This document shows positions 13,085 through 35,930 of a stretch of DNA of 53,475 nucleotides, one piece after another. This stretch comes from a virus (lineage: Duplodnaviria; Caudoviricetes): positions 1 through 53,475 of IMG/VR virus record IMGVR_UViG_3300028388_004078; one strand, written 5' to 3'. Below the pieces are notes generated by a model, which made no database searches, had not been told where the DNA came from, and saw only the letters and a list, made by a program, of their open reading frames with translations. Position 1 is the stretch's first letter; every line of letters begins with the position of its first letter. The translations under genes were made by a program, and so were the position numbers.

Positions 13085-13099
13085 AATGCCCTCCATTGT

Positions 13100-14469: not shown

Positions 14470-14580
14470 GGCAACCCAAATTAGGTGCGGTTTTTACCAG
14501 ACCGCAAACTGGACCGAAACGAGATCCTAGAGGATCAATCGTTGTATACCCGACAACGGTTTGTCTGTCAAGGTATTTTT

Positions 14581-14658
14581 TGGCTCGGGTGGAGGGTCTC
14601 GAACCCCCGACACGCAGACGTTAACAGCATCCGGCTCTACCAACTGAGCTACACCCGA
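14581..14658 (-). tRNA. tRNA-Asn(GTT)
   Basis: Cloverleaf, G73, CCA. Confidence 0.9.
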
Positions 14659-14685
14659 ACAATTCGGATACCCGCATGAACTTCT

Positions 14686-14760
14686 TGGTGGACCGCCGGG
14701 GAATCGAACCCCGACTACCCGCTTGCAAAGCGGGGGTGCTCCCGTTATCACTAGCGGCCC
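14686..14760 (-). tRNA. tRNA-Ala(TGC)
   Basis: G3-U70 pair, CCA. Confidence 0.9.
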
Positions 14761-14914
14761 TTTTTGCCCAACCCCGTGTACTTTGGAGCAAGGACTTGTC
14801 GGCTTTTTTGGAATGCCGACCAACACATCACCCGAAGGGTATCTCAACTTGCTTCGGTTGCGCGGCATATCAACGCGGCCAATTATTCCTGACTATCATA
14901 AACGGAGTCAGTTG

Positions 14915-15433
14915 TCAAGGACTATTTTCGAAATGATCCTCTGGTAGGATAATGAATGGGACCCACGGAGAAATCGCAGGCGGCGCACCGCCTACTGCGT
15001 CTGGATAGGTAACCGTGACCCGAAAACGCGCGTTACCTTGCTCCACATTCGGGTCGATATAAAACTGATAACTCATGTTGAAAGTTCCGACAGGAAAAAT
15101 TACGCCGGAAACAGACAGCGGGGAATCGTGATACAAGCCGTCACCGTTTGTGATGACCCCAATTACATGAGGTTGTCCACAATCATCGCGATGTTTTTCG
15201 ATATCGTTCCAATAGATCATAGCCCACGCTCCCGGAGGTGTATCAGTCGCGCGGTGCCCAGAGCGCGGAAACGTGACGCACGGGCCTCTGGATTCTGCCT
15301 GTACGCGGGTGGTAATATATTCTTCTATGCGCGGCTCTGCGAGCCACAAGAAAACGCCTAAAACCGCCGAAACAGCGGCAACAGCCGCTGGAAAATGTTT
15401 ACAGAAATAAACAATTTGTGAAAACACAGACAT
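14915..15433 (-). CDS. Membrane-anchored hypothetical protein
   Basis: N-terminal hydrophobic helix followed by a beta-rich domain. Confidence 0.6.
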   Translation of the reverse strand: MSVFSQIVYFCKHFPAAVAAVSAVLGVFLWLAEPRIEEYITTRVQAESRGPCVTFPRSGHRATDTPPGAWAMIYWNDIEKHRDDCGQPHVIGVITNGDGLYHDSPLSVSGVIFPVGTFNMSYQFYIDPNVEQGNARFRVTVTYPDAVGGAPPAISPWVPFIILPEDHFENSP

Positions 15434-15533
15434 TCCTCTTCAGTTTTAATTCATCGGGGGAACTGTCGGTAATTTTTTATACCATGCGTGTCATATAAAG
15501 TCAACACAACACGGCACACTCGGATCAAATAAT

Positions 15534-15609
15534 TGGTGCGCGCGGGTGGGATTGAACCACCGGCCTCTGTCGTGTCAGGACAGCGCTACTACCGCTGAGC
15601 TACGCGCGC
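15534..15609 (-). tRNA. tRNA-Val(GAC)
   Basis: Cloverleaf, CCA. Confidence 0.9.
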
Positions 15610-15615
15610 GCGTAA

Positions 15616-15691
15616 TGGTACCCGGTGAAGGAATCGAACCTTCTCTGTCACGACTTGTAAGGACGCCGCTCTACCGGTGAGCTAACCGGGC
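15616..15691 (-). tRNA. tRNA-Val(TAC)
   Basis: Cloverleaf, CCA. Confidence 0.88.
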
Positions 15692-16024
15692 TCAGTCGTC
15701 TAACAAGCGGACGACCCGAAAATTTGCCCCCGGCATCCACCGATGGGCGGTTCTCATAACCCGCCGATCATGCAGCATTGGAATGAGTTGTTCTTCCTGA
15801 GACGGGCGAAGATACGCCCGACCATTGATGTCATAGTACCGATCACCGAGACGCGTGTAGACGTGACCGTCCAGTTCGCAATACCACGGCTCGGCGTCTG
15901 GAAACGCGGCCTTGAGTATCTTGTAGAACTCGAAGCAAGCGCCTCGGGTGTAGACGGTCACTGCGCCGGGGAAACTGTTCCGTATGGCGGTGATCAGCGT
16001 CTCAGGGGACGATGTTTCTGCCAT
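15692..16024 (-). CDS. Hypothetical protein (possible Cys-His-Asp papain-like fold)
   Basis: YTRGACFEF..GHVYT..YYDING. Confidence 0.55.
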   Translation of the reverse strand: MAETSSPETLITAIRNSFPGAVTVYTRGACFEFYKILKAAFPDAEPWYCELDGHVYTRLGDRYYDINGRAYLRPSQEEQLIPMLHDRRVMRTAHRWMPGANFRVVRLLDD

Positions 16025-16613
16025 AGAATGCCGGGGCTCGCGTGTTGGCTGCACGGGCGTCGAAGTGATACCATGCGGCGTTGTCCTTGCCGGTCTGCCC
16101 GGTGCCCTGAAACCACTTGACACGTCCGATAGAGACGATGTGCGTGCAGTACCGAAGGTAGGGCTCCGCTTGGACCGTGTGTGCCCAGTCAGCGTCGAAA
16201 AGGAACCACGTAGGCGCAATGCTCGCGCAATGCGCAATCAATCGGTGCAGGATGTAATCGTTTTTCTTGTCGCGCTCCCACGGCGGGTTCGTAATGATCA
16301 TGTCAATGTGATGTGCTTTGAGGTCACGTTCTGTGATCTCAAACGCATCTCTTTCGTCCACGTCATCACGCCATGCGCCGTCGAAATGGATGTCTGCTGT
16401 CCGGCGTGCCCCCTCGGGGCCGATGTCGGACAAGAGCCTCGCACGACCGTTGGTGTGGTTTTCAACGTGACAGGCAAGACGACCGTCTCCGGCGCAAGGC
16501 TCAGCAAAGAAGAAGCCACCCTTGGGCAGAAAAGAAACCAGTGGAAGAAACGCCGCTTCGGGCGTGAAGTATTGGCTCTTTTCCAGCCGGTCGAAGTCGG
16601 ATCGCTTGCCCAT
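16002..16613 (-). CDS. N6-adenine/N4-cytosine DNA methyltransferase
   Basis: SAM-binding EPCAGDG and catalytic ITNPPW motifs. Confidence 0.85.
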   Translation of the reverse strand: MGKRSDFDRLEKSQYFTPEAAFLPLVSFLPKGGFFFAEPCAGDGRLACHVENHTNGRARLLSDIGPEGARRTADIHFDGAWRDDVDERDAFEITERDLKAHHIDMIITNPPWERDKKNDYILHRLIAHCASIAPTWFLFDADWAHTVQAEPYLRYCTHIVSIGRVKWFQGTGQTGKDNAAWYHFDARAANTRAPAFYGRNIVP

Positions 16614-16810
16614 CAGCCGTTGATCCCCACGTAAGATTCGATCACTTCACCGTTTTCGTTGGTGATCGTGTGCTTCCGTACGGAATAGACCTGCATCCCG
16701 TGATCGCCGTCATAGTTGGCGATGCGTACGGACATGTCGCCAGCGTCTTCCATCCCTGCTAGAACTTCTGTAAGGCCGGAAACGGTCATGGCGTTCGTAT
16801 TGAGTGGCAT
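16613..16810 (-). CDS. Small hypothetical protein
   Basis: RBS AGGAG then MPLNTN. Confidence 0.5.
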   Translation of the reverse strand: MPLNTNAMTVSGLTEVLAGMEDAGDMSVRIANYDGDHGMQVYSVRKHTITNENGEVIESYVGING

Positions 16811-16873
16811 GTAAGCTCCTGTTCCATCAGATATGCCCGTATAGCACAGTTTCTCGTGAAATGCAAGTGGATA

Positions 16874-16960
16874 TGGTGGAAAGCGCATGAATTGAACCTG
16901 ACCCGGTCAGACCGGAACGGGGTTACAGCCCGCTTACGTCACCAGACGCTGACACTTTCC
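16874..16960 (-). tRNA. tRNA-Tyr(GTA)
   Basis: Long variable arm, CCA; imperfect T stem. Confidence 0.78.
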
Positions 16961-17508
16961 GTTAGATATGTGACCAGACTTTTCGGTCTCTGATCATGTA
17001 GATGTAGGAGTGGTGGACCCCAAATTCTTTTGCGATGTGTGAGAAAGGTCGGCTTTCCTCGATCTGCTCGCGTATAGCGTATATGTCTTGGACAACCGGG
17101 CACGTGGATTTTTCTTGCCTCTGTGATCGGCTCCTGTGCGGCTGGCCCGTCCTTTTACGGCCATATCCCGCATATTGTCATAATGGTCCCCCACACTCAA
17201 GTGCTCCGGGTTACAGCACAGACCGTTGTCACATGTATGCATCACCAGCAGTGCGCCGGGGTCAATTCCGTTATGCAGGAAGTAAGAAATCCGGTGAGAC
17301 GACACAGTTTTGCGAGAGTTTGGAAGCTTGATGTGGCCGTATGAAATATCGCAACTATTACTGGTCTGTCGTGCGCCCTGCCATTCCCAACATTCCTCGG
17401 GGGGACCGTATGTCTATTTTTGACCAAAAAACGCTCAGATAGGCTGTCGATCTGGGAATCTGTCAATAAGTCCAGTCTCGTGCTCCCGCGAACAGTATTG
17501 TCTGACAT
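16961..17508 (-). pseudogene. HNH (HNH_3-type) homing endonuclease with multiple frameshifts
   Basis: CWEWQG, HRISY, MHTCDN..CCNPEHL..DNMRDM motifs spread over several frames. Confidence 0.8.
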
Positions 17509-17520
17509 AAGATTCTCTTT

Positions 17521-17594
17521 TGTACCGGGCAGGGGACTCGAACCCCATCCGCCTCATTCACAGTGAAGAATGCAACCCTTACACCTTACCCGGC
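17521..17594 (-). tRNA. tRNA-His(GTG), alphaproteobacterial type
   Basis: No G-1, A73; ends ACA rather than ACCA. Confidence 0.8.
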
Positions 17595-17614
17595 ATATTC
17601 ACGCCGGAATCAGG

Positions 17615-18583
17615 TCATCCGGCGCGAACGATGTCTTCATGGACCTCTGACACGAAAGAATCCATCCAATCGTAGTCAGGGGCCTCGCGGAGGGGCGAAT
17701 TTTCTCCGATTCCCTCCAAAATAGCGATTTTTTCGTAAAAAACGTCCAAAATGCGGTCCATATCGACGTTTCCAGCCCGAATTTCGAGTAAAAAGTCCCG
17801 ATTCCGCGCCGGAAACGTGATTTTTCCGGTCTGGAACAGTTCGATGCCTTCGTCAGCGATGCGAACCGCATGGTACAGCGCTTTCCAGTCAGCACCATCC
17901 GATTCTTGGGCGTTTTGGGAGCGTTTCCCTGCCTCGTTGACCGGCTTGCTGTAGACCTTGAGAGCTTCCTTGCAGGAAATGCCCATCGGGACCTGACGGG
18001 AGTAGACATCGAGATATTCGAGTGTCGAACCGTCCGGTTGCGGCTTCGGAATGATCTGCACGCCTTCGACTTTGGACAGCGCCTCAGTGACCTCCCAGAC
18101 CTTGGCTTTGTCGTTTGGCGCAGATGCGAAGATTTCACACACCGCCATGAACGTTCCGAGGCGCTTTCCACGCATCGAGTAGCGTACCGCCTGCCCTTTA
18201 CAGTAACCAGCGAAGGCTTTCGTGTTGTGAGACACGATTTTGTCGCGATTCGCGAGGACTTTCATCCAGATTCCGTTGTAGGCCACCTCCCTATAGTGCC
18301 CATGATCCACGCCGTCTGCCACGAAAAGCATCTCGACGGGGATCGTTTGCATGTCGGAAGCAAGTTTCAGGAACCTTTGGAGGGTGAAGCTCACGGTGTC
18401 AACGTCATCAGCACCGTTGGTGGATGTCATGGACCCGGTTGATTGGCTGATAACGGGTTTGCCGCGTCCGAGCAGGATTTCAGGCTTCGAAGGCAGGTGC
18501 ACTGCCTTGTAGTCTTTGTCCGAATCGGCGTTACTGGTCCCGTACAGGTGAGAGCCAGCGAGGCATCTGAAAATCTCTGTCAT
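17615..18583 (-). CDS. Pol-beta superfamily nucleotidyltransferase (RlaP/NrdC.11-like)
   Basis: GSHLYG..SDKD motif; DWKALYHAVR; FLLEIRAG. Confidence 0.85.
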   Translation of the reverse strand: MTEIFRCLAGSHLYGTSNADSDKDYKAVHLPSKPEILLGRGKPVISQSTGSMTSTNGADDVDTVSFTLQRFLKLASDMQTIPVEMLFVADGVDHGHYREVAYNGIWMKVLANRDKIVSHNTKAFAGYCKGQAVRYSMRGKRLGTFMAVCEIFASAPNDKAKVWEVTEALSKVEGVQIIPKPQPDGSTLEYLDVYSRQVPMGISCKEALKVYSKPVNEAGKRSQNAQESDGADWKALYHAVRIADEGIELFQTGKITFPARNRDFLLEIRAGNVDMDRILDVFYEKIAILEGIGENSPLREAPDYDWMDSFVSEVHEDIVRAG

Positions 18584-18641
18584 GGCTCCCTCCTTCGTTG
18601 TTCTGTGGTTGTATGACAGGGACCGGAGCCCCTGTCAAGTG

Positions 18642-20777
18642 TCATGCGTCTGCGAGAACCGCCAAGATTTCGTCCTTCTGGTCCCGGATCGCCTCGACCG
18701 TAGCCTTCGGCGCAGCCGGATCGTCAGACCCTGCGATGGAGACGATGTCACCAAACGAGGGGCGGTAGTCCCGGTAGGTCAGGAAGTACCGCATGATGTC
18801 CTTGAGGTCCGCAGCCTTGCTGCGCACGTTGTTGTGTCGGCCCCAGTTACCGTGCAGGTCGAGGTAGACCATGTAGCCGGTTTCCAGATCGAGGATCGCC
18901 GGAGAGGTGTTCCGAGTCTCGCTATCGAGCGAGAGCTTGGTTTCCACCGTCGAGACCTCGAAGTGCTTTCCGGTCTGGCCGTCGCGGATCATGAGACCAG
19001 CGAAGCACGGGAACGTGTCGAACGTCATGCCCGAGAACACGTTGGCGTTCATCAACACGTAGCGGATTCCAGCCTTGCGGGCCTTTGCCACGTCGATGTC
19101 GATGTATTCCGCAGCGCCCCGACTGCCGTTGAGGATGTCGCCCGAGTGCACAGCGTAGTTGCCCTGACGAAGGCTCATGTAGGAACAGTCGCCTTGGCGG
19201 TTCAGGTCGGCGTCGTAGAAGACCGCTGACATGTCCACGTCACACGATTCCTTCCAGTGAAGGAAGAACCGAACCGTGTCGTCATTGGTGAAGTCGAGCT
19301 TGACCCGATCCCCACGCGACGTGCGCACATCCGTGTCCGAGGCCGAGCGGTTGCCCGCCGGTACGAAAACACCGAATGCTTCTTCCGGGACATCCCGGCT
19401 GAACGGAAGCTTCCCAGCAAGACGGCTGTGTAGACTTGCGTCCAACAGGTGCGTCAAGCGCGGGTCGATCCGATCAGGTGCACGATCCGACGCCATGATG
19501 GTACCGTTCGGCAGCATGTGGAAGCGCTTGTCGTGCTCCACAGTCCGTGTGAGGTGCGTACGAAGCTGTAGAAGCTTCCCCGCGTCCACGGTGTCGAACG
19601 CGCCCTTGGCAGCGCTCAGGAGCGCGCTCATGTCCTTGGAGGACGCGAGGCGGCTGAGTTCCGTCATGCGGCGTGCGAGCACGCCCGGACGATCCTTTGC
19701 GAGAGCAATCTTGCCCGCGACATCGGCTGCAGCGTACTTGCTCTCCCACGACTTCAACCAACCCGTACGAAGGTCCATCAACGCCGCGTAGGCGTTGGGT
19801 GCACGCTTCTCGAACGAGCGGATTCGCACGTGCGATGCGAGGCGCTTCCACGGCTCTGCATGGCGCAGGAAATCGGTTTCGTGGTCCGTGTTGCCACGAA
19901 CGAGAACCGCTTCCAGAATGTCCATCACAGCCTTCGCCTGACTGGTCGTCAGGCGGAAACGCGGCGGCGTCTTGAGCGACAGGTCCGCCTCCTGCGTCAC
20001 GGTGCGCCCGTGAATGCCGGTCCACGACTTCCCGACCTTGTGGCGGCGGACACTGCCGGACAGGTGCACGGCGAGGCGCAGCACGTCAGTCACGGAGTTG
20101 CACGCAGCCGCGTACTGGTCGTTCGTCATCATGTCCCACACAAGCGGAAGCTTTTCGCGGAACTTGATCGACGCCAGCGCCGAAGTCGGCAATGCGCCGG
20201 TCGAAAGCGCCCACTTCATGAAACGCGTTTCGGCGGACGAGAACGGCTCCAAGTTGGACATCATCGCCACCGCCTTGTCGGTGATGAACGATTCGTCCGC
20301 CAGCTTGATGAACCGCACCTTCCGGCGACGGTTCCCATCTTCATCCTTGAAGCGGAGCGTGAATTCGGCGTCAAGGTCGGTGTCGCCGCCCAGCCAGTCG
20401 TTCTGGAACCCCGTGAACGGGTCAGCGCCGAACTCTGCCGGGTCATGGTCGAACTGGAAGCCTAGATGCGTCATGAGCCAGCCGAGGAAGCGCACGTCGA
20501 ACGGCAAAATCTGATGGTTCGGGAACCGGCGGTAAAGCGGAGACACTTGGTCCATGCCGCTCAGGTTCTTGTTCAGGGCCGAGCCCAGCCGCTTGAATGC
20601 AGCGCCGCGCTGTGTCGGCGTCAGCTTGTCCAGCGCCGCCAGAAGATCGGGCGTCAGAGCGTAGCGGTAATCGTATGCGAGCGCCGCGATATCCATGACG
20701 GATGCTTCGACGGTGCTGTTCGACCCATCGAGGTGGAATGCCCCGAAAATGGAAAGAATATCTGCGTCAACGTTCAT
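18642..20777 (-). CDS. Helical (TROVE/Ro-like?) domain fused to C-terminal TerD-like domain
   Basis: 711 aa; TDVLRLA and RPGVLAR motifs; C-terminal RFFLHW..DVDMSA..HSGD..GAAEYIDID; adjacent Y-RNA-like genes. Confidence 0.7.
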   Translation of the reverse strand: MNVDADILSIFGAFHLDGSNSTVEASVMDIAALAYDYRYALTPDLLAALDKLTPTQRGAAFKRLGSALNKNLSGMDQVSPLYRRFPNHQILPFDVRFLGWLMTHLGFQFDHDPAEFGADPFTGFQNDWLGGDTDLDAEFTLRFKDEDGNRRRKVRFIKLADESFITDKAVAMMSNLEPFSSAETRFMKWALSTGALPTSALASIKFREKLPLVWDMMTNDQYAAACNSVTDVLRLAVHLSGSVRRHKVGKSWTGIHGRTVTQEADLSLKTPPRFRLTTSQAKAVMDILEAVLVRGNTDHETDFLRHAEPWKRLASHVRIRSFEKRAPNAYAALMDLRTGWLKSWESKYAAADVAGKIALAKDRPGVLARRMTELSRLASSKDMSALLSAAKGAFDTVDAGKLLQLRTHLTRTVEHDKRFHMLPNGTIMASDRAPDRIDPRLTHLLDASLHSRLAGKLPFSRDVPEEAFGVFVPAGNRSASDTDVRTSRGDRVKLDFTNDDTVRFFLHWKESCDVDMSAVFYDADLNRQGDCSYMSLRQGNYAVHSGDILNGSRGAAEYIDIDVAKARKAGIRYVLMNANVFSGMTFDTFPCFAGLMIRDGQTGKHFEVSTVETKLSLDSETRNTSPAILDLETGYMVYLDLHGNWGRHNNVRSKAADLKDIMRYFLTYRDYRPSFGDIVSIAGSDDPAAPKATVEAIRDQKDEILAVLADA

Positions 20778-20795
20778 TTGGTCCTCCTTTCAAAC

Positions 20796-20868
20796 ACCGA
20801 GAGAGCGGGGAGCTTTTGGTCAGCTTGAAATGCAGAGATTAGAAGTATGCCCCTGCCATGCGCTCGGT
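20796..20868 (-). ncRNA. Y-RNA-like motif copy 3, in the 5' leader of the TerD-fusion gene
   Basis: CGCAT-N7-GCATACTTCTAA inside an ACCGAG/CTCGGT stem ending 7 nt before AGGAGG. Confidence 0.7.
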
Positions 20869-20921
20869 TATTCCGTGATACGTGATTCGGCTCTTATTGT
20901 CAACACGCTTGTGTTCAACAC

Positions 20922-21075
20922 CAGTGTATTGAAGACATAGCCGCCAGCTTTTTCCAGACAACTGCTCTACCACTGAGCTACACCCCGGCACTGCAGGGAT
21001 GGTGGGACTCGAACCCACGACCTGTTGTTTCATACGTTAGAAGTATGCTGTTGCGATGCGGTCTTCAAGACACTG
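20922..21075 (-). ncRNA. YrlA-like Y RNA with circularly permuted tRNA domain
   Basis: 15-bp terminal stem; GCATACTTCTAA; T arm, loop-closed acceptor stem, then D arm. Confidence 0.85.
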
Positions 21076-21172
21076 ATGATGTGTGAAGGAGCGAAGCGGG
21101 TGGCTTTGCTCTCTACCAATGATGAATTAGAAGTATGCCTGCCCATGCGGCTCCCTCGCAAATCATCAGTGT
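21070..21172 (-). ncRNA. Short Y-RNA-like RNA without tRNA domain
   Basis: Long terminal stem; CGCAT-N6-GCATACTTCTAA. Confidence 0.75.
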
Positions 21173-21175
21173 AAG

Positions 21176-21530
21176 TTGGGGGCTTCTGTTGCTAGGTGCC
21201 CCCGGACCCCTTGGACTTACGCCGCGATGGCAAGCGCCGGAGCGCGGTCATCGTTTGCGACGGAAGCCTCGATTGCGATCATGTCGATTGCAGTTGTGAT
21301 TTCGAATCGAAGTTCTTGCCCTGATAACGGTAAGGCCAAGCCGACACGCCACTTCACTTATTGTTCCTGTCGATCCTATTTCGCCCCCATCAAAACCGCA
21401 CCTCATTTTGAGCGTGCCATCGGCTATACCGTGTGACCCGAACTTAGGATCGGGTGCGGTTATGGTGGAGGCGCGGGGTACCGCCCCCCGGTCCAGAAAA
21501 CCATCCGCTTCGCAGATGAACGTGTGTAGG
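21176..21530 (-). ncRNA. ssrA: Two-piece (permuted) tmRNA
   Basis: Acceptor piece ends CTCCACCA at 21463; coding piece starts GGGGGCGAAATAGGATCGAC at 21388; tag ...ANDDRAPALAIAA* (stop 21217-21219). Confidence 0.92.
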
Positions 21531-21564
21531 GAAGACATAGACGATTCGAGCGGCTATGTCAAGC

Positions 21565-21843
21565 TCAATATGCCGTTGGAAACGTCTGAATCGGAGAAGT
21601 CGTGTTCTCCAACGTGACCGTGTCGACTTCAACGCGGTACACCTCGACGTAGAGGATCGAAATCTGATCCACACGAACAGTTGCCGCGCCATTGTTGATA
21701 TCGACCCAATCCTCGGTCAGCGGTGTCCGCCGCCGGGTCTGCGCCTGAGAAAGCGCCGCGACGAGGCTGGCGACATTGGCTGTCTGGTGGATGGTGAGAA
21801 CGTAGTCGCTAATCAGGCCACGTACAACGGCGAAGTATTCCAT
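21565..21843 (-). CDS. Hypothetical protein
   Basis: 92 aa with RBS. Confidence 0.5.
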   Translation of the reverse strand: MEYFAVVRGLISDYVLTIHQTANVASLVAALSQAQTRRRTPLTEDWVDINNGAATVRVDQISILYVEVYRVEVDTVTLENTTSPIQTFPTAY

Positions 21844-21921
21844 CGCGCTTCCTTAGATGTGGGTTCTGCCCAGCCGCGTCATGTGTTCGTTTTCATCGCC
21901 ACATGACGCGGCTGGTGAAAT

Positions 21922-22006
21922 TTGCGGGGGCAGGATTCGAACCTGCGTGATCCTTGTTCAGGAAACGGGTTATGAGCCCGCTGAGTGGCCTCTACTCTAC
22001 CCCGCA
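21922..22006 (-). tRNA. Initiator-like tRNA-Met(CAT) with long variable arm, no encoded CCA
   Basis: GGG/CCC anticodon stem; variable hairpin TCCT-GAACA-AGGA. Confidence 0.72.
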
Positions 22007-22022
22007 ACAAAATACCCATAAT

Positions 22023-22087
22023 TGGTCGGCGTGGTGGGGAGTCGAACCCCTTGATGCATCACTATCCTCAAGCCCCGAGGCACGCCG
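22023..22087 (-). ncRNA. Minimal tRNA-like RNA with Pro-type acceptor
   Basis: CGGCGTG/CACGCCG-ACCA plus T arm; no standard D or anticodon arm. Confidence 0.55.
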
Positions 22088-22118
22088 AAAAATGGTCCGC
22101 GCAAGCACGAACAAGTAT

Positions 22119-22194
22119 TGGTCAGGGCGGTGGGTCACGATCCCACGGCCTCCGGATTCCAAATCCGGTACTCTACCAACTGAGCTACGCCCTG
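22119..22194 (-). tRNA. tRNA-Pro(TGG)
   Basis: C1-G72, A73, CCA; A37; atypical T loop. Confidence 0.85.
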
Positions 22195-22197
22195 ATG

Positions 22198-22560
22198 TTA
22201 CGTTGGGGCGCCTTTCGGCGACGTGATTTCTTCGTCCAGTGTTTGGAAATTCGATCCGCTGGCGACCAGACAGGTCAGGCCGTTTGGTGTCGTGACCGTG
22301 ATCGTCCATGTGCCGGTTTCTTCGTTGCCCCAGACTTCCACGATGGCGGTGGCGGTGGAACCGCCGCTGCCACTCAGGCCAACTGCTCGGCGCGCTTCTT
22401 CGTAGCCGGGGCGAGTACCGGAAGGAGCGTCGATTGGGCCGCTCAGGCGTGCCTCGACAAGCTGCCGTGGGGCACAGTTCTGTTGCTGGGCATCAGCGGG
22501 GTGCGATGCAAAAACGGCCAGCGCCAGAGCGGGCGCCGCAAGAAACTTCCACATGTTCAT
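22198..22560 (-). CDS. Secreted small protein of a type common in Rhodobacteraceae
   Basis: Signal peptide; CAPR..L..Y.E..GL..ETGTWTITVT.PNG.TCLVASG. Confidence 0.7.
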   Translation of the reverse strand: MNMWKFLAAPALALAVFASHPADAQQQNCAPRQLVEARLSGPIDAPSGTRPGYEEARRAVGLSGSGGSTATAIVEVWGNEETGTWTITVTTPNGLTCLVASGSNFQTLDEEITSPKGAPT

Positions 22561-22821
22561 GTCCTTTTCGACTTTGGTGCTCAATCGCACCACATAAAAG
22601 TTACGATCCGGTTTCCTCTCAAACCAAAAAAGTCACGCCCGTGTTGTGTTCTTGCTTGGCCGCTCCTGCGGAGCACGAGACAACTTGCGTAATACAATAC
22701 CATATTTTCTTGGAACTTGTTGAACCCTATGTAGGTGATTCGGACGCCAGTGTCAAGAACTTTTTTGGCCCACCACGCGATGGTGACTTACGTTCCTCCC
22801 GCCCGCAGAGGAAACCGTGTG

Positions 22822-22895
22822 TGGAGACGTGACCCGGAGTCGAACCGGGATTGACGGAGTTGCAGTCCGCCGCGTAGCCATTCCGCCATCACGTC
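22822..22895 (-). tRNA. tRNA-Cys(GCA)
   Basis: U73, CCA. Confidence 0.92.
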
Positions 22896-22896
22896 A

Positions 22897-22968
22897 TGGT
22901 CGCGCCACCCGGTAACGATCCGGGCCGGGTTCTTTATGAGAGAACCTTGATCACCATGATCTGGCGCA
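22897..22968 (-). tRNA. tRNA-Met/Ile2(CAT), compact
   Basis: CT-CAT-AA loop, short D arm, CCA. Confidence 0.7.
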
Positions 22969-22973
22969 GAATT

Positions 22974-23050
22974 TGGTAGCGCATACGGGTTTCGAACCCG
23001 TTTCTCTGCCTTGAAAGGGCAGCGACCTTCGCCAAGAAGTCCAATGCGCC
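22974..23050 (-). tRNA. tRNA-Glu(TTC)
   Basis: Cloverleaf, CCA. Confidence 0.88.
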
Positions 23051-23057
23051 ATGAATT

Positions 23058-23133
23058 TGGTGTGCCGGGAAGGAATCGAACCTTCATCTTCGGGACTTCA
23101 ATCCGATGTGGGCACCAGCATCACCACCGACAC
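23058..23133 (-). tRNA. tRNA-Phe(GAA)
   Basis: TT-GAA-GT loop, CCA. Confidence 0.8.
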
Positions 23134-27198: not shown

Positions 27199-27214
27199 TG
27201 TTTCACGTGAAACA
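27199..27214. promoter_or_regulatory. parS site 1
   Basis: TGTTTCACGTGAAACA, perfect consensus. Confidence 0.85.
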
Positions 27215-28498: not shown

Positions 28499-28699
28499 TC
28501 AGCCGATTTTCAGCAGGTCCGCAGCGGGGTTGTTTTCCAGCGCGTCCAGTTTTCGATTGACTTCATCCAAGCTAGTCGAGAATGTCCCATCCTCGGATTG
28601 AGTCCCGTCCAGCCAGTAACCGGGCTGACCGTCCACATGATCGGATTCCAGTACATAGCCCATGATGCGGGCGCGGGCGTAGGTTTGAGGCTCGGTCAT
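28499..28699 (-). CDS. Early hypothetical protein
   Basis: Own promoter and RBS. Confidence 0.6.
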   Translation of the reverse strand: MTEPQTYARARIMGYVLESDHVDGQPGYWLDGTQSEDGTFSTSLDEVNRKLDALENNPAADLLKIG

Positions 28700-28830
28700 T
28701 TTGTTTTGTCCTTGTTTAGCGTTTCAATAAGTCTTTATCGCATGGGTCGCGGCGATTCGCAAGATAAAAAATTCGCTTATCCTTTGTTTTTTGTATTGCG
28801 AATCGCGGCGGCGCGGCGTAGTGTATAGGG

Positions 28831-28900
28831 GAGGTCAGGAAAGATCGGCGGACACCGATTGAGTAAGGGGCGGGTTAGGAGTGCAGAATCCGTTCTTTTT
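28831..28900 (+). ncRNA. Repeated early small RNA, copy A
   Basis: GAGGTCAGGAAAG-hairpin-AGTA-hairpin-polyT after a promoter. Confidence 0.75.
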
Positions 28901-29066
28901 TTTTTTTTTGCGCGCGGCGCGGAACGAATCATGAACAAACGTGTCAAGCAAAAAGCGCCCCGCAAGGCGCTTTTTTTTCACAAGGCGAGTCCGATCACTA
29001 GCAAGGCATAGGTCAGGACCGCAAAGGCAATCCCGGCGCGGATTGTGCCGCGCCGGGGGTTGTCTG

Positions 29067-29975
29067 TCATGCGGCGCACTTGATATCCGCCATCTTTTCG
29101 GTCAGGTCCCACAGCGCCTGATTCAGGGCGGTGGTTTGGGCAATGCCCTTGACTTCCCGAACCTTGGCGCGGCGTGCCTTGCCATTGGTGCCGGTGATGA
29201 TTCCCCGCTGACCGCCGCGCACGGTGTTTTCTTGCACGATATTGAACGCGCTCCACAGCGTCGGAGTCTTGTCCGCCGAACGGCGCGCCCGCAGGAGGTC
29301 CAGAGGCTGGACAGGGACCGCCGACTCGTTCAGGACGGGCAGGGCGTCGGGGTTTTCCGGGTCCGCCTCATAGGCGTTGGCAAAGCGCACGCGGTGCGCA
29401 GCCTCGGCAAAGGTCAGGGCCTCGGCGCGGTCAAGCGTGATCCCCTTGAACCGCTCGACATGTTCCAGAACGCGCGGCGCGGTTTGCAGCATGTTCAGCG
29501 CCCCGTCGCGCACATCCTCGATGACGGTTTTCCCCGCGTGCCGAACGGTCACGGTGTCGAACGCTTCCCCGGTGAAAAGCCCATTGGTGCAGACAAAGCG
29601 GAAAATGCCCGCGATCATCTTATAGGCGGCGGTCCCGTCATTGGCATTGACCAGAATCACCTCGAACGCTTCCCCGGTGGTATTGGTCAGGGACCGGTGG
29701 CGCAGCCGGATCATGTGGCGCGTGTAGTCCTGTTTTCCGGGGATGCGGGTGCGGGCCTGTTGCGCCATCACGGGCATGAAATCGGCGGCGCGCAAGCCGT
29801 CCAGAACGTTGACGGTCGGGATGGGCACAAAGCGGTCGGAACGCGACTCGTGGGCCTCGGTGGCGAAAAGCGACGGCACGGCGCGCTGCAATTCGTCATT
29901 GGAAAGCGGGGTTGCGCCATCCCAAAAGATGTTGCCGCCGTTGCTCATGCCATTCATGTAACGATTGTAAGCCAT
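29067..29975 (-). CDS. DUF932/DUF945 family protein
   Basis: HESRSDRF..IPT, HMIRLR, NANDG, FRFVCTNG, FNIVQEN, LNQALW motifs. Confidence 0.85.
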   Translation of the reverse strand: MAYNRYMNGMSNGGNIFWDGATPLSNDELQRAVPSLFATEAHESRSDRFVPIPTVNVLDGLRAADFMPVMAQQARTRIPGKQDYTRHMIRLRHRSLTNTTGEAFEVILVNANDGTAAYKMIAGIFRFVCTNGLFTGEAFDTVTVRHAGKTVIEDVRDGALNMLQTAPRVLEHVERFKGITLDRAEALTFAEAAHRVRFANAYEADPENPDALPVLNESAVPVQPLDLLRARRSADKTPTLWSAFNIVQENTVRGGQRGIITGTNGKARRAKVREVKGIAQTTALNQALWDLTEKMADIKCAA

Positions 29976-30121
29976 AGTCTTGAACCTCTCAGGTTTGTGG
30001 GGTTGCCCCCGTTTCGGTAAGTATGTTTTCGCATAGGGCGCAGTGATTCGCAACACAAAAAACAGGTCAAACAAAACTTTTTTCTCTTGCGAATCGCACA
30101 ACGGTCGGCTAGGTTGAATGT

Positions 30122-30182
30122 GAGGTCAGGAAAGCCTAGCCATGGCGAGTAGGGGACGGGTTAGGAGTGTGGGGTCTGTCTT
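30122..30182 (+). ncRNA. Repeated early small RNA, copy B
   Basis: Same motif and promoter spacing as copy A. Confidence 0.75.
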
Positions 30183-30195
30183 GACGTTGGGGAAC

Positions 30196-30266
30196 AAAAA
30201 GAGAACGGATTCCGCTCTCTTAAACCGTCCCATACTTGGCGCGGGCGGCGCGCCTTTCCTGACCTC
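30196..30266 (-). ncRNA. Repeated early small RNA, copy C (convergent with B)
   Basis: Same motif; TTGACA-18-TAAGGT promoter; T-run at 3' end. Confidence 0.75.
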
Positions 30267-30321
30267 ACATATACCTTAGAACGATTCGGGCAGCGGTGTC
30301 AATAATAATTTACCGATACCT

Positions 30322-30337
30322 TGTTTCACGTGAAACA
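30322..30337. promoter_or_regulatory. parS site 2
   Basis: TGTTTCACGTGAAACA. Confidence 0.85.
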
Positions 30338-30399
30338 TTGGCGGGGCGGTCCTATCTCGGTCGAAACGAGTCTGGATATACGCCCCGCCGTGCCCGCCG

Positions 30400-30726
30400 T
30401 TAGGCGGGATGCGTGCCCGAGTCGCCAATGGCGATGACTCGGCCCTTGTTGAACGCGAAACCTTTCTTGCCTTCCGCGTTTCCATCGGTCGCGGGATAGT
30501 CGAAAAACACGTTGCCATTGTCACGCAACGCTTGCGAGGCAATCGCGCCACGCTCGCCGCCGACGCGCCGCTTGTAAACTTTCGGCATGCCGACGCGAGT
30601 CGTCACGGTGCCGTCTTTCTTGGCGAAAGAGACTTTCGTGATCTGCGCGCCGCGCGCGGCAAGCTCAGCGTCCACGACGCTTTGCGGCAGGAATGCGATC
30701 AGCGCGGAGTCGATATTGCGGGCCAT
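30400..30726 (-). CDS. Early protein, SH3/WYL-like beta barrel
   Basis: VSFAKKDGT..TR motif. Confidence 0.6.
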   Translation of the reverse strand: MARNIDSALIAFLPQSVVDAELAARGAQITKVSFAKKDGTVTTRVGMPKVYKRRVGGERGAIASQALRDNGNVFFDYPATDGNAEGKKGFAFNKGRVIAIGDSGTHPA

Positions 30727-30833
30727 GGGTTTGATCCTTTCGGGTTGCTGCACCTTCGGTGCGTTTCGGTGAGTCTGTTATGCCATGCGGCGGGGCGATT
30801 CGCAATAGTTTTTTCGCCCCGCCTTGCGTTTTT

Positions 30834-30974
30834 CTAGCGGTGTTTTCCGCCAGACTCGAACGCGCGCCGCTTGGCTTTCGCGCGCCTTGCCTCGCGCCGC
30901 TTGGCTTGCACGCCGTCACGGTCGCGCTTGCGGTCGCGGTTTTCGTGCTTTTCGTTTTTCCAGTCTTTGCCCAT
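30834..30974 (-). CDS. 46-aa highly basic peptide
   Basis: Manual translation MGKDWKNEKHENRDRKRDRDGVQAKRREARRAKAKRRAFESGGKHR; RBS AAAGGTGAG. Confidence 0.6.
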   Translation of the reverse strand: MGKDWKNEKHENRDRKRDRDGVQAKRREARRAKAKRRAFESGGKHR

Positions 30975-31084
30975 TGTCTCACCTTTCTGCGCTTTGATGC
31001 GCTGGGGTTTGCGGGGCGAATCGCCCCGCGTTTGAATTTAGAAATGACCTAACGCGATGTAAAGCGCGATCAGGATTCCGAGTG

Positions 31085-31873
31085 TCACGATTGAGATGCC
31101 TGACTCCTTTTCTGGAATGCGTCAATCTTGGCCTTGACGCCATGGGCCGGGATGAAAACGCTTGCCTTGTTCGGGCTGGAATTGCCGCCGCATGCGAGGC
31201 AAGCCGCGCAATCGGTTTTCTTGCCCGCCGCGTCCGACGCGGGGCAAAGGAATTCGCGGCCTTTGACCAGCGACTCGGCGGGCGTGCCGACTCGGAATGT
31301 CCGGTATCCCATGGCTTGCGCGGCGATTGCCTCACAAGGCGAGTCCGCGCTCGCCATGCAATAGCGGGCGAATTCGGGCGAACAAAACGACTCGCGCCAT
31401 TGATGCGTGTATCCGGTGCAGCGCCCCGCGTCCGCCAGCAATTCCGCCCAAACGTCGAAAGGAACGGCGGCGGGGTCGCCATAGGTGCCGAGTCGCACGC
31501 TCAGACCCGCCAGCAATGCCGCGCCGTCCGCGCCAAGCGCGACAGGATACTTGCCCGCCGCGTTGTGCTTATAGACGTTCAACGGGCCTTGAAAGACCAG
31601 CACATAGCAGGAACGATTCACGTTCTGCGATGCGCGCCCATCTTTGCCCGGTGTCACGATATCGCCCCGGTGCTGACAATTGCCGCAGATGGAATAATCC
31701 GCGCCGGTGTGAATCGCGTCAACCGGGCTGATATCGGTGCGGATGATATAGGTTTGCACCATGTGACCGGTTTTGCGATTCTGCGATTTGGCCTTGATGC
31801 CGGTCGCGATCAGCGCAATGGGCGCGCCGTCGATCTGCGACGGGCCTTCCCAGAGTTTAACAGAGTTTGCCAT
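31085..31873 (-). CDS. Cys-rich phage protein (possible Fe-S/radical-SAM-like)
   Basis: NRKTG.MVQTYI, ICGNC, CYV, RLGTYGDP, GYTHQW, ASADS, CPA..CAACLAC. Confidence 0.65.
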   Translation of the reverse strand: MANSVKLWEGPSQIDGAPIALIATGIKAKSQNRKTGHMVQTYIIRTDISPVDAIHTGADYSICGNCQHRGDIVTPGKDGRASQNVNRSCYVLVFQGPLNVYKHNAAGKYPVALGADGAALLAGLSVRLGTYGDPAAVPFDVWAELLADAGRCTGYTHQWRESFCSPEFARYCMASADSPCEAIAAQAMGYRTFRVGTPAESLVKGREFLCPASDAAGKKTDCAACLACGGNSSPNKASVFIPAHGVKAKIDAFQKRSQASQS

Positions 31874-32046
31874 GGGTTTTCCTTTCTGGCGTTGCGGTGA
31901 TTCCTTTCTCGCATATGCCACGCCGGGATGCAAGCGAAAAAATTTTGCGCAAGCTTGCTTTTTTCTCTTGCGAATCGCTTTGCCCGGTGTCATACATAGA
32001 TCACCGAAACGGCAAACAACGCCAAAACCCAAAGGAGACTTTACAC

Positions 32047-32364
32047 ATGACGACTCAGACCCACGGTTTCGACCTTTCCACGCTCGACCCCGCCGCGCTG
32101 GAAGCGCTCGCCGCCGATGCGGCGAAACTCGCCCCGAAGGTGCAGAAGGAACGGCTGGAAGCCGCCCGCGCCGCCGCGCTGGAAGTGATCGAGTCCCACG
32201 GTTTCACCTTGCGCGACGTGTTCCCGAACGCCAAGCGCGTGACGCCCGCCGCGCCGAAATTCCGCCATCCCGACGACGAGTCGCAAACGTGGTCCGGGCG
32301 CGGTCGCAAGCCGGTTTGGCTTGTCGATCTGGAAGCCGCAGGCGGCGCGCCGGTCGCGATCTAA
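32047..32364 (+). CDS. hns: H-NS family nucleoid protein (HvrA-like)
   Basis: PKFRHP..TWSGRGRKPVW signature. Confidence 0.9.
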   Translation: MTTQTHGFDLSTLDPAALEALAADAAKLAPKVQKERLEAARAAALEVIESHGFTLRDVFPNAKRVTPAAPKFRHPDDESQTWSGRGRKPVWLVDLEAAGGAPVAI

Positions 32365-32387
32365 GGCGCGCCACAGAACAAAGGAAA

Positions 32388-32418
32388 GGCCCGCCTTGCA
32401 TGTGCAAGGCGGGTCTTT
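32388..32418 (+). terminator. Intrinsic terminator after hns
   Basis: GGCCCGCCTTGCA-tg-TGCAAGGCGGGTC followed by TTT. Confidence 0.7.
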
Positions 32419-32428
32419 GTGAATGCGT

Positions 32429-32444
32429 TGTTTCACGTGAAACA
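32429..32444. promoter_or_regulatory. parS site 3
   Basis: (T)TGTTTCACGTGAAACA(A). Confidence 0.85.
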
Positions 32445-32517
32445 AGCCTGCGCAAATTTTCTATTGACCGCGCCGCGCGAATCGTGCAAGGTAAGGCATA
32501 GCAAGAAAGGAAACCCG

Positions 32518-32748
32518 ATGGAAACCGCAGCACAAGCAAAAGCCCGCCTTGACGCCCAAATTGCCTATGGCAAATGGAACGTCGCAGGAACCACCCGCCG
32601 TTTGCGGGAAGCGCAATTGCGCGAAATGTCCCCCGCCCGCCGTGCCCTTTCCATCGCCACAGAAAAGGCGATTGATTGCGTGATGTTTTGCGCGGGCTGG
32701 GCATTGTTCGCCGCGTTTGCGTGGTATGGGATCGGGGGGCTTTTCTAA
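32518..32748 (+). CDS. Small protein with C-terminal membrane helix
   Basis: RBS then METAAQ. Confidence 0.6.
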   Translation: METAAQAKARLDAQIAYGKWNVAGTTRRLREAQLREMSPARRALSIATEKAIDCVMFCAGWALFAAFAWYGIGGLF

Positions 32749-32981
32749 TGCTGATACCCGAACAAACAACCCGCAACGCAATCCGGGCGGGTGACGTGAT
32801 AGAGCACAACGGGCGAGTCGTCACGTTGTGCGCACGTGATATCCGCCGGGATTCATTCATGGGAGTCACCATACGGGGCGAGTCCTACATGCTGGGGCGC
32901 AAGCCTGTTATCCGGTTGCGCCCATATCGGACGCCACAGGGGGCAGCGTGCCCGCAATGCGTGAACGAGGGCAAGGGATAG
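32748..32981 (+). CDS. Small conserved-type phage protein
   Basis: IRAGDVIEHNG..TLC..DI..DSFMG.TI.G.SY.LG. Confidence 0.65.
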   Translation: MLIPEQTTRNAIRAGDVIEHNGRVVTLCARDIRRDSFMGVTIRGESYMLGRKPVIRLRPYRTPQGAACPQCVNEGKG

Positions 32982-33160
32982 GGCTTGACGAATCGCGCCC
33001 CGAGCGATACGTTGAGTCATGGCGCAGGATAGCACGCGGAGTCGTGCCGTTACTGTAAGCGGGTGCTGGTCACCTAGCGCGGTGCGAGGCTGAAATGTCT
33101 GATCTGTAAGCCGCCAAATTAGCCCTTGCGAATCACCGGGCAATGTCCTAATCTGAATGT

Positions 33161-33225
33161 GAGGTCAGGAAAGCGCGGCGGACACCGGGCAAGTAGGGGA
33201 CGGTTTAGGAGAGCAGACTCTGTCT
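33161..33225 (+). ncRNA. Repeated early small RNA, copy D
   Basis: Same motif; TTGCGA-17-TAATCT promoter. Confidence 0.75.
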
Positions 33226-33310
33226 ATCTACAAAAGGTTAACGAAAGCTTTCTCGCCAGATTTTTTGATGGGGCGGGCGCGCTCCAGACAAAAACGGCGC
33301 GCGCGCTATA

Positions 33311-33480
33311 GAAAAAATGAGAAAACGTAAAAACGGCTGATCGTCAAAACGAGCGATCACCAGAACGAGCGTGCGTATTAAAAAATGAGAAAACGTAAAA
33401 ACGACGGATCGTCAAAACGCGAGATCGTCAAAACAAAAATGAGAAATAGTCAAAATAAAAATGCGATCCCGTCAAAACTG
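33311..33480. repeat. A-tract repeat array
   Basis: AAAAATGAGAAAACGTAAAAACG twice plus a variant; CGTCAAAAC four times. Confidence 0.8.
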
Positions 33481-33983
33481 CGTTTCACCAGTTCTGAAAC
33501 GAAAGCTGGGCGCGGCTCGGCTTAGGCGTGATGGGTCATATATGACCCCTAAAGCGGTGTGAGATGCCATAAATGACTCATTGAGGCCCGCTACGCGGGC
33601 TTCTCCCAGTTCGCCAAGCAGCGCGAGCTTTCGCGCCCCTCGGCGTGACAGTGATAAATATAAAAAATACGCTCCCGTCAAAACTCGTTGCAGTCGTTTT
33701 GAAACAAAAACCCCACCAGTATATAACTGGCGGGGCGTTCCATTTGATCTTCTGCTTTTTGCTCAAAAGTAAAGCCAAGCTCATGGCTCTGATGCACCTT
33801 ATATAACCGATTCGTGCTGGTTTGTTAAGAGATTCTTTATCTTAATGCTCGTTTTCAGAGGCAAAAAGGGGTGCTCCCCGCCGCTCGACCAGAGTGTCTG
33901 GGAGCAGGACCGCGTAAGCGGTCGCGTGGCGGGGAGCGGTTTTGCCGCACAGGAAACCCAAAACCCTGCGGCATGAGAGGAAC

Positions 33984-34367: not shown

Positions 34368-34653
34368 CCAGCACCTACCTGATCATCAATCGCGTTAGTA
34401 AGGAGGCTTTCATAGACTACGTAACTCTGGCTCTCTCGCCACGCGCCTTCTTCGCTGTACGTCTTGTACCGAAATTTATACCCCTCGAAGAAAGCTTTCT
34501 TGATATACTCCGCCATTTTCCTGCAATTCATGTCATACCCATATTTAGATTCATCGGGTCCCTATACAAAATAATAGGGTCCCTGTCAAGTCGGGAGACA
34601 GGGACCCTTGGATGGGACTAAGGTCCCGCCGGGTATTGAATGTTTATGGGTCC

Positions 34654-34884
34654 CTACAATGTAATCGCAGCTTCCATTTCTTCTTGGGTCAGTCCCAAGC
34701 GTCCTGCCTCGTTTCCCTGTGCGTGTAGGAATATTTCCGGCGGTGCATCGGGATGGTCGTCCATGCAGTTCATCTGCCACTGCCCCATGTAGGCTCCATA
34801 TTCATCCCACACCATGCGATGGGACAGGGCGCCAAAGTCTTGCTCATATCCGGTCGGGGTTTTTACGATGTCAGGTTCGTCCAT
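34654..34884 (-). CDS. Hypothetical protein
   Basis: RBS AGGAGG then MDEPD. Confidence 0.6.
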   Translation of the reverse strand: MDEPDIVKTPTGYEQDFGALSHRMVWDEYGAYMGQWQMNCMDDHPDAPPEIFLHAQGNEAGRLGLTQEEMEAAITL

Positions 34885-35930
34885 GTTAATCCTCCTTTTT
34901 TGCTTAACCTTACATCGCATGATTCGCGCTCAGTGTCAACACGCTACAGCGTAAAAAGTCACGTTCTGACCAGCGGTCTCCCGATAAATTTTATGCAGTT
35001 TGTTAATAAATAGGTATACCGGCAAGTGAATCAGGCTGGGTCCCTAGAAAATCAACATCTAAGGAAAGCGAATCGTGCTTTGGCAATGAAAGCAGGCTGA
35101 AATCAGGTTGGTTCGAGAATTATCTCGTAAGGAACAGCGTCAGTAATCCACCTTGGCTGATTGATGCCCTTAAAAATAATGGCATCTTTGCCTTTACCGA
35201 AATAGTCAGACATCAAAAAGCATCTTCGATATCTCCAGAATTCGGGTTGATGGCAGTGACCCGCGTAGCGGGGATTTTTGGAAAGCTTGGCATGATTCCC
35301 TCCTACTGATTCTGTGAGACCAGTATAGGCCCCGTCAGGGGCTTCTACAAGTCCAAATATGACGTTTCAGACAAATTGTCACGTGAAAAATCGAGATGTG
35401 ACAAAAGATATTTAGCAAAATCAGTTAGTTATATGTTCACCCGATTCTGGTATTGTAATTCGTGACCCGCCCGGCGAATCAACTCAGGTGGGTACCCAAA
35501 TTGTCACATCTGAGATTCGGCTAGAACGAATCAGTTTGTGGCGCGTCCCCGAGAAAAAATAAAGATCGACCGACGAAAACGCAGGGCGGGAAAATTACCG
35601 TGATCTTAATTTTTCGCGTGGCTGCTGGGATACCTTGGTATTCTGTTGGAGAAAATGGTAGAGCTACTGGCGATCTTAATGATATCTCAGAGACTCAGAC
35701 TTTTCTCCGGCTGCTACAGACCCTTTTCACATTCCCCCTACCCTGCATTTGGAATCCGTTGGATCCCGGAAAAAAGACCCGGTATATTTCAACCGGGCCA
35801 GTTTGAAGGAGGAACACCAGATAGCCTATCTGGTGAAATATGTGTACCACAAATTGTCATATCTTGTCAAGCGATTTGGGGTTGACGGGTCACAGCGAAT
35901 CGGCTAGATGTAAGGCAGCGGTAAATTTAT

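Follow-up and report, generated by a model that had tools for sequence, protein, structure and literature searches.

Predicted promoter-coupled copies of a structured RNA family in the early region of DSS3P8-like roseophages

The window, that is, the whole stretch of 53,475 bases analysed here (IMG/VR virus record IMGVR_UViG_3300028388_004078), is a fragment of a DSS3P8-like roseophage, the completeness of the record being estimated at 36%. Its nearest named relatives are the siphophages DSS3_MAL1, MD18, RpAliso, vB_RpoS-V10, DSS3P8 and RcXuper (~147–150 kb), which have Roseobacter-group bacteria and Rhodobacter as their hosts and show 66–72% identity to the window across a conserved gene at 31.1–31.9 kb. 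Within a region of short, mostly leftward genes with many similar promoters, the window carries four copies (A to D) of an element of about 65 nt, which an earlier reading of the letters without database searches, hereafter the sequence-only reading, had described as an unrecognised, independently promoted small RNA.

The window has four exact copies of GAGGTCAGGAAAG, at 28831 (plus strand), 30122 (plus strand), 30254–30266 (minus strand) and 33161 (plus strand), while the remaining matches have 2–3 mismatches and are near chance (21 matches in total versus 12.5 ± 3.7 in shuffles). The four copies align across ~68 nt, with 39 columns invariant, and a covariance model, R1, which was run on the window with its filters off, found only these four at 73–82 bits, the next best match having 10.9 bits. 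A short-word BLAST search of the window with copies A and D returned the copies themselves and chance words only, among the latter one of 13 nt identical to the P1 sequence, at 21721–21733 (E value 0.04). Each copy follows a predicted promoter and consists of a 5′ tail, a hairpin P1, an AGUA linker and a G-rich 3′ domain drawn as a second hairpin, P2:

28796–28824, plus strand: promoter A, with −35 element TTGCGA (28796–28801) overlapping GAATC (28800–28804), a 17-nt spacer and −10 element TAGTGT (28819–28824)
28831–28909, plus strand: RNA copy A (R1 79.5 bits over 28829–28898), with 5′ tail 28831–28843, P1 28844–28848/28855–28859 with loop CGGACA, AGUA 28862–28865, P2 28868–28876/28887–28895 and a T14 run 28896–28909
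30087–30115, plus strand: promoter B, with TTGCGA (30087–30092) and GAATC, a 17-nt spacer and TAGGTT (30110–30115)
30122–30184, plus strand: RNA copy B (R1 73 bits over 30120–30184), with a short P1 (GCC/GGC), a P2 containing G-U pairs, ending without a T-run and directed towards copy C
30273–30302, minus strand: promoter C, with −35 element TTGACA (30302–30297), an 18-nt spacer holding GAATC (30287–30283) and −10 element TAAGGT (30278–30273)
30189–30266, minus strand: RNA copy C (R1 81.6 bits over 30200–30268), with P1 GGCGCG/CGCGCC, loop CCGCC and a 3′ 10-pair hairpin (30221–30199) followed by TTTGTT
33126–33154, plus strand: promoter D, with TTGCGA (33126–33131) and GAATC, a 17-nt spacer and TAATCT (33149–33154)
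33161–33228, plus strand: RNA copy D (R1 76.9 bits), with P1 loop CGGACA and no T-run

What the sequence-only reading had described at the locus was confirmed. The four dispersed positions coincide with the exact repeats and with the R1 matches, and in 4 of 4 copies the first G lies 6 nt past a TAnnnT −10 hexamer of a promoter containing GAATC. The P1 and P2 pairings are present in the four-copy alignment as described, copy A ends in T14 and copy C in its 10-pair hairpin with TTTGTT, and copies B and C are convergent with their starts 144 nt apart. Likewise, no open reading frame (ORF) with a ribosome-binding site follows copies A, B and D on the plus strand or copy C on the minus strand.

With a profile made from the four copies, homologues were detected in IMG/VR contigs as well as in five isolates, and 27 sequences were aligned (alignment A3) to build R1. 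The complete relatives contain three R1 matches each in MAL1 and MD18, four in RpAliso and six each in DSS3P8 and vB_RpoS-V10, all of them close to one end of the genome, within the last ~9 kb or the first 165 bases of the record. From 60 isolate and IMG/VR sources, 39 matches were obtained, one of which (L009, 21.6 bits, without a promoter) is a chance match, and 80 metagenome loci gave 42 matches, including 33 new sequences, so that the family comprises 67 distinct full-length sequences in total. A first pattern search of IMG/VR had produced 46 loci, only L005, L010, L028, L031 and L048 being real, and with a looser pattern, which yielded 78 stretches, R1 gave no match at E ≤ 0.001 in 77 of them (all except L048) or in five further loci.

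Copies in cellular genomes were also considered. A scan of one genome per prokaryote species, which detects only near-exact 5′ and linker motifs, produced 76 loci from unrelated phyla; all of these, pre-selected for the motif as they are, scored at most 30 bits with R1 versus at least 44 for true members and were judged to be chance matches. The covariance-model searches of Rfam and of related phages revealed relatives and no Rfam family, in keeping with the remark of the sequence-only reading that the family was unrecognised: the Rfam 15 scan of the window at gathering thresholds reported tRNAs and transfer-messenger RNA (tmRNA) only, and the scan of 28600–33500 at E ≤ 10 gave nine weak matches, none on the four elements. 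ARAGORN places tRNA genes at 5.7–23.1 kb and calls none at 28–34 kb, although the GGGUU...GAAUCC part of the element, judged by eye only, bears a likeness to a T-arm. Literature searches on the related phages, roseophage small RNAs, phage small RNAs and RNA-seq of Ruegeria pomeroyi infection yielded no description of the RNA, and the MD18 paper, as far as a term search of it reaches, contains none of the terms sRNA, noncoding, promoter, repeat or intergenic.

The support for P1 comes from covariation across the 67 distinct sequences, in which the helix is kept although its sequence differs, as the sequence-only reading had noticed in the window. All six pairs change on both sides, with GC, CG, AU and UA present, and stems such as GATCAG/CTGATC, TACCGG/CCGGTA, GCAGCG/CGCTGC and GGCGCG/CGCGCC are unrelated in sequence. 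In alignments A3, A4 and A6 the proportion of paired cells in P1 is 90.1%, 90.0% and 93.6%, compared with 29–53% in slid registers, and the covariation of the whole structure (P1 and P2) amounts to 0.334, 0.383 and 0.451 versus 0.18–0.19 in shuffled alignments, with 0 of 500 shuffles reaching the observed values. The comparative support for P1 is as good as a helix of six pairs allows. The P1 loop, on the other hand, belongs to one of a few fixed types (CGGACA, CCGCC or short loops), and a fixed loop on a free stem fits the pattern of loops that are read by a partner.

The 3′ domain is less certain. P2 (GGRCGGGUU with AAUCCGUYC) is 83–86% paired, and its changes are one-sided, being G-C/G-U or A-U/G-U switches at 4–6 of the 9 pairs; such exchanges fit an RNA of the given strand because G-U pairs work only there as RNA, but they are weaker evidence than changes on both sides. 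A second 3′ subtype, with GCGAGGGUCGGCGG replacing GGUUAGGAGUGCGG, is found in 13 of the 67 sequences. Both subtypes keep at least four G-tracts, and a G-quadruplex was considered on this ground as a possible form of the 3′ domain.

Conservation is found everywhere except in the P1 stem. The 13-nt purine-rich 5′ tail (GAGGUCAGGAAAG), the AGUA linker, the P2 loop, the GGG run and GGAAUC are near-invariant, GAGGTCAGGAAA being exact in 47 of the 67 distinct sequences, with 1–3 changes in the others. Altogether ~50 of the 65 transcribed positions are near-invariant, the hairpin loop included, and the RNA strand contains 42% G versus 27% in the window. As the sequence-only reading had proposed, the conserved parts are situated outside the stem that covaries. 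A coding reading was rejected, since the length of P1 differs between copies by non-multiples of three and so breaks any frame; in many copies the first triplet is GGG or GAG.

The promoter layout is common to the whole family. An A/T-rich stretch, TTGnnn, a spacer of ~17 nt, TAnnnT and GAATC were found without exception in the 36 distinct upstream regions, which agrees with a multicopy RNA whose copies are each independently promoted, and it is from this conservation that the copy promoters are inferred, a simple promoter scan of the window having flagged none of the four. Beyond what had been described earlier, GAATC occupies two positions, overlapping the −35 element in 10 of the 36 regions and standing just upstream of the −10 element in 26. 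The longer GCGAATC occurs 24 times on either strand of the window, 19 of these between 25 and 36 kb (for example, at 28754, 28798, 30045, 30089, 30797, 31970, 32477 and 33128); it marks early protein-gene promoters too, and therefore the RNAs share that promoter class.

The family members lie in the spaces between early genes and are mostly located back-to-back with early mRNA promoters. Copies A and B lie 30–45 bp from leftward GCGAATC promoters, the elements of which are the following:

28754–28765, minus strand: early promoter element TTGCGAATCGCC, directed leftward and placed back-to-back with promoter A (context only)
30045–30056, minus strand: early promoter element TTGCGAATCACT, likewise directed leftward, back-to-back with promoter B and serving the DUF932 gene at 29067–29975

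The same back-to-back arrangement, GCTTCAAGC ... GCTTGAAGC, is present in relatives. Copies face away from the flanking annotated coding sequences in 6 of 6 cases in MAL1 and MD18 together, in 2 of 4 in RpAliso and, in the stretches examined, in 3 of 4 in both DSS3P8 and V10, an orientation that speaks against a role as a leader. A convergent pair, its two starts ~145–155 nt apart, recurs in the window, RpAliso, DSS3P8, V10, L048 and L057. As for the 3′ ends, a T-run of at least five directly follows P2 in 9 of 37 distinct copies and, by a scripted count, a downstream hairpin with a T-run in 8 of 37, while others run into their convergent partner.

A different element is present in RcXuper (L140) in six copies, at 6825–6994, 7691–7860, 8832–9001, 10422–10591 and 12281–12450 on the minus strand and at 8731–8900 on the plus strand. 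It has ~110 conserved nt (CACGGAACAGGGCGGCGGACGCC...) directly after GCGAATC-type promoters, and its copies are situated between early genes and face away from them. It resembles the family in its genomic region, promoter type and convergent pair, as well as in a GGCGGAC hairpin similar to the P1 loop, but it has a different 5′ end, CACGGAACAGG, is longer and gives no R1 match even at E up to 1, so it is either a distant homologue or an analogue of the family.

Several observations concern the promoters and the surroundings of the copies. CGAATCG, read on the other strand as CGATTCG, fits the GcrA consensus YGAKTCK. In GcrA-regulated promoters of Caulobacter, methylation sites cluster just upstream of −10 (PMC4647560), which is where the motif lies in 26 of the 36 RNA promoters. 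The early promoters look GcrA/CcrM-type and may depend on CcrM methylation and GcrA, which hints at a coupling of phage early transcription to the host cell-cycle machinery; neither GcrA nor an N6_N4 methyltransferase was found among the genes of the 53-kb fragment. The 14-bp palindrome GTTTCACGTGAAAC is present in three exact copies at 27200–27213, 30323–30336 and 32430–32443 (0.34 expected with up to two mismatches), two of which lie ~20 nt upstream of TTGAC −35 elements, namely that of RNA C and that of a promoter at 32464; the palindrome probably serves to bind a regulator. The leaders of early protein genes have CACCGAAACG in common near the predicted start (30010–30019, 30762–30771 and 31890–31899 on the minus strand and 32002–32011 on the plus strand), and RcXuper leaders do likewise. 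Just downstream of RNA D, at 33312–33690, there are A-rich iteron-like direct repeats with AAAAATGAGAAAACGTAAAAACG and ATCGTCAAAAC units spaced by 16–68 nt, which could serve as a replication origin or as an array for a regulator, and a similar array is found in RcXuper at 5318–5555.

Among the neighbouring genes, the leftward 29067–29975 codes for a DUF932 protein (E value 1e-35), and the rightward 32047–32364 for a 105-aa protein with an H-NS C-terminal DNA-binding domain (Pfam PF00816, E value 2e-13). A leftward 46-aa ORF at 30834–30974 is very rich in Arg and Lys and had no match in a Pfam search; ORFs of similar size, as seen by eye in annotation tables, adjoin an RNA copy in MAL1, MD18, DSS3P8, V10 and RcXuper, and the predicted product could be an RNA-binding peptide. 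An inserted module may be represented by the stretch at 34400–35900, which by eye is lower in G+C and has repeated GGGTCCCTA motifs as well as leftward ORFs (starts near 34884 and 35295) with strong ribosome-binding sites. Farther away, the window contains an array of 30 tRNA genes called by ARAGORN at 5742–23133 on the minus strand, an alphaproteobacterial two-piece tmRNA identified with Rfam at 21174–21566 and, at 6268–6354, a match to the Rfam tRNA-Sec model (50.3 bits, cut-off 47) with no ARAGORN call.

With covarying P1 stems, a conserved promoter at a fixed distance and matches confined to the early region, it is very likely that the elements are genes of a real, phage-specific structured RNA family of roseophages. 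What the RNA does is a separate question. The reading we prefer, with a probability of roughly 0.45, is that of a trans-acting early RNA whose P1 loop and invariant unpaired parts bind a conserved partner; it is preferred because the conservation extends far beyond a seed, the loop is fixed while the stem is free, and there are several copies to provide dose. Host RNA polymerase would transcribe each copy from its own sigma70-like, GAATC-carrying early promoter, starting at or beside GAGG, and the transcript would be ~65–75 nt long when ending at its own T-run or ~105–140 nt at a shared downstream terminator. It would consist, in order, of the unpaired 5′ tail GAGGUCAGGAAAG, P1 with loop CGGACA, CCGCC or a short one, the AGUA linker and the G-rich 3′ domain, folded as P2 with loop AGGAGUGCGG or as the second form, GCGAGGGUCGGCGG. 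Several gene copies would give a high RNA dose soon after infection, and the RNA would act in trans rather than on a gene that follows it; by binding the partner, the invariant loops and unpaired segments would sequester or redirect it. Such a partner would be either conserved across Roseobacter-group hosts or phage-encoded, and could be a protein or a pyrimidine-rich RNA.

A number of points weigh against this reading. The transcription, the 5′ ends and the abundance of the RNA are all deduced from DNA sequence; the words abundant and immediate-early, as used in the sequence-only reading, follow from the host-type promoters and the position, and trans action and decoy working are likewise suggested rather than observed. 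Changes on both sides of P2 are nearly nil (0, 2 and 1 pairs in the three alignments), and column 43 is variable among sequences of the second 3′ subtype although the P2 partner of that column stays G, so that the 3′ domain may fold differently there. The P1 loop type and the 3′ subtype combine freely, which gives no indication of a loop-loop contact. Single-copy folding is unremarkable, with z-scores of −0.5 to −1.1 for copies A, B and D and −2.6 for copy C, and the minimum free energy folds of family members disagree with one another; since single-sequence folding energies are of this kind, the structure rests on comparative evidence and not on stability. The number of GGA motifs is, by hand arithmetic, about that expected from the G-rich composition. 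Finally, given the fixed back-to-back placement and the convergent pair, the act of transcription could outweigh the RNA product.

A stronger form of the preferred reading, which we regard as doubtful, is that within minutes RNA from the three to six early genes floods the cell and captures a conserved host factor, the RcXuper element being a second solution to the same task. If that were true, the target of the flooding RNA would be, for example, part of the translation or RNA-decay machinery, a global regulator that binds RNA or a defence protein that senses it, captured by means of the fixed hairpin loop and the purine-rich single strands, and multicopy early decoy RNAs would be a general takeover device in these phages.

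It is also possible, though on balance unlikely, that the RNA is a base-pairing riboregulator, in which the invariant 5′ tail would be the seed for host or phage mRNAs, perhaps with Hfq, and the copies would be sibling small RNAs (sRNAs) that raise the dose. In a variant of this, the purine seed, similar to a Shine-Dalgarno (SD) sequence, could free ribosome-binding sites masked by pyrimidine-rich leaders or soak up CU-rich host sRNAs. A tail that begins at +1, is unpaired and nearly invariant would suit such a role, as would the hairpin followed by a U-tail in 9 of 37 copies, which suits Hfq, and prophage-encoded anti-sRNAs provide a precedent, phage-encoded sRNAs in general being a field of active study. 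Despite that, no target above control was found in the window, in five relatives or in 401 alphaproteobacterial genomes, and the conservation reaches past the seed into the P1 loop, the linker and the 3′ domain. In the window, the best pairing of the 5′ tail or loop, the RNA's own antisense excluded, was −18.6 kcal/mol, compared with a median best of −20.3 for shuffled seeds. Complements of the tail with up to two mismatches in the five complete relatives were not above the reversed control once the RNA genes had been removed, and a manual table count gave 21 exact complements in the 401 genomes versus roughly 18 for the reversed control. The 16S rRNA of two alphaproteobacteria paired no better with the RNA than with shuffled seeds. 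All these tests detect only long, near-perfect pairing, and they treat the 401 genomes alike, with the true hosts not singled out. With the 16S 3′ tail, the SD-like motifs of the RNA reach −8.2 and −7.9 kcal/mol, about as much as one of two ordinary early-gene SD sequences (−8.9 and −5.8). None of these tests supports the specific decoy targets suggested in the sequence-only reading.

A cis role, or one played by the act of transcription itself, we consider quite unlikely in any of its three versions. In the first, divergent transcription would aid the back-to-back mRNA promoter, or head-on collision would insulate the early units from read-through; in the second, the RNA would modify the polymerase transcribing it, as put RNAs do; in the third, the G-rich transcript would form an R-loop, for example one priming or activating replication beside the repeats after copy D. 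The placement of copies A and B next to leftward promoters, with the same layout in relatives, and the recurrence of the convergent pair in six sources speak for such a role, and so does RcXuper, which has no R1 match yet carries six different promoter-proximal copies with a convergent pair, suggesting that it is the arrangement that is conserved; copy D facing the iteron-like repeats and the G content of the RNA strand point the same way. Neither supercoiling, collision nor an R-loop, however, needs the near-invariance of ~50 of 65 positions. The put-like version also meets the difficulty that genes for the polymerase to reach are lacking downstream and that copy A stops at T14, and the replication version that the convergent pair has the wrong geometry for bidirectional initiation and that, going by annotation tables only, a placement by repeats like that of copy D was not seen in MAL1, MD18, DSS3P8 or V10. 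A DNA-level repeat near promoters (a protein-binding or recombination site) without a functional RNA is highly improbable, for although GAATC, a GANTC methylation motif, recurs in most copies inside GGAATCC as well as in the promoters, and the palindromic stems of P1 might in principle also arise at the DNA level, the P1 stems covary with entirely different sequences where a protein site would keep its sequence, the G-U pairs of P2 are C-A mismatches on the opposite strand, and the orientation is fixed relative to the promoter at an exact distance of 6 nt.

To our knowledge, descriptions of small RNAs from lytic phages are few, and for marine phages there are almost none. The new element here is an RNA family that aligns clearly, covaries well in one helix and has defined promoters and a conserved gene arrangement, and its copy number of 3–6 is unusual. 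It is present in cultivable phage-host pairs, namely Ruegeria pomeroyi DSS-3 with DSS3P8, V10 and RpAliso, and Phaeobacter inhibens with MD18, and its function is therefore directly testable. If the RNA does prove to be a decoy, it would represent an RNA-based route of takeover or counter-defence in an ecologically important bacterial group.

Among known systems, the put RNAs of phage HK022 (putL and putR) are ~65–70 nt long, have two stem-loops supported by covariation, belong to early promoters and are present more than once per genome; they act in cis, carrying the polymerase through terminators into downstream genes. The roseophage RNA is like them in size, in its two stem-loops, P1 being well and P2 moderately supported, and in having its promoter 6 nt upstream. 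It differs from them in that its copies are not followed by an ORF and mostly face away from their neighbours, with copy A ending in T14; the put model is absent among the Rfam matches, and put is set apart here by description, not by sequence comparison. Type III antitoxin RNAs of the ToxI kind are short tandem repeats beside a toxin gene, whereas the copies here are dispersed 1.3–3 kb apart or convergent, and the idea of the sequence-only reading that the element mimics an RNA antitoxin is not upheld. A P1 stem that differs between copies of one genome likewise argues against mimicry of a single CRISPR repeat by an RNA anti-CRISPR.

Qrr1–5 of Vibrio and CcsR1–4 of Rhodobacter are host-encoded sibling sRNAs whose mRNA targets are known and whose seeds or loops are C/U-rich. 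The family shares with them near-identical copies, an invariant unpaired segment, variable structural parts, own promoters and, in some copies, own terminators, but it is phage-encoded, purine-rich and conserved well past the seed, and the target searches were negative. In the protein sponges CsrB, RsmY and RsmZ and in the prophage anti-sRNAs AgvB and AsxR, unpaired or loop motifs titrate a partner. In the roseophage RNA, GGA stands in the 5′ tail and in both the CGGACA and the AGGAG loop, at about the number that the composition predicts, and the CCGCC loop type has none. The family is a phage small RNA of a known general kind in an unusual multicopy, promoter-coupled arrangement.

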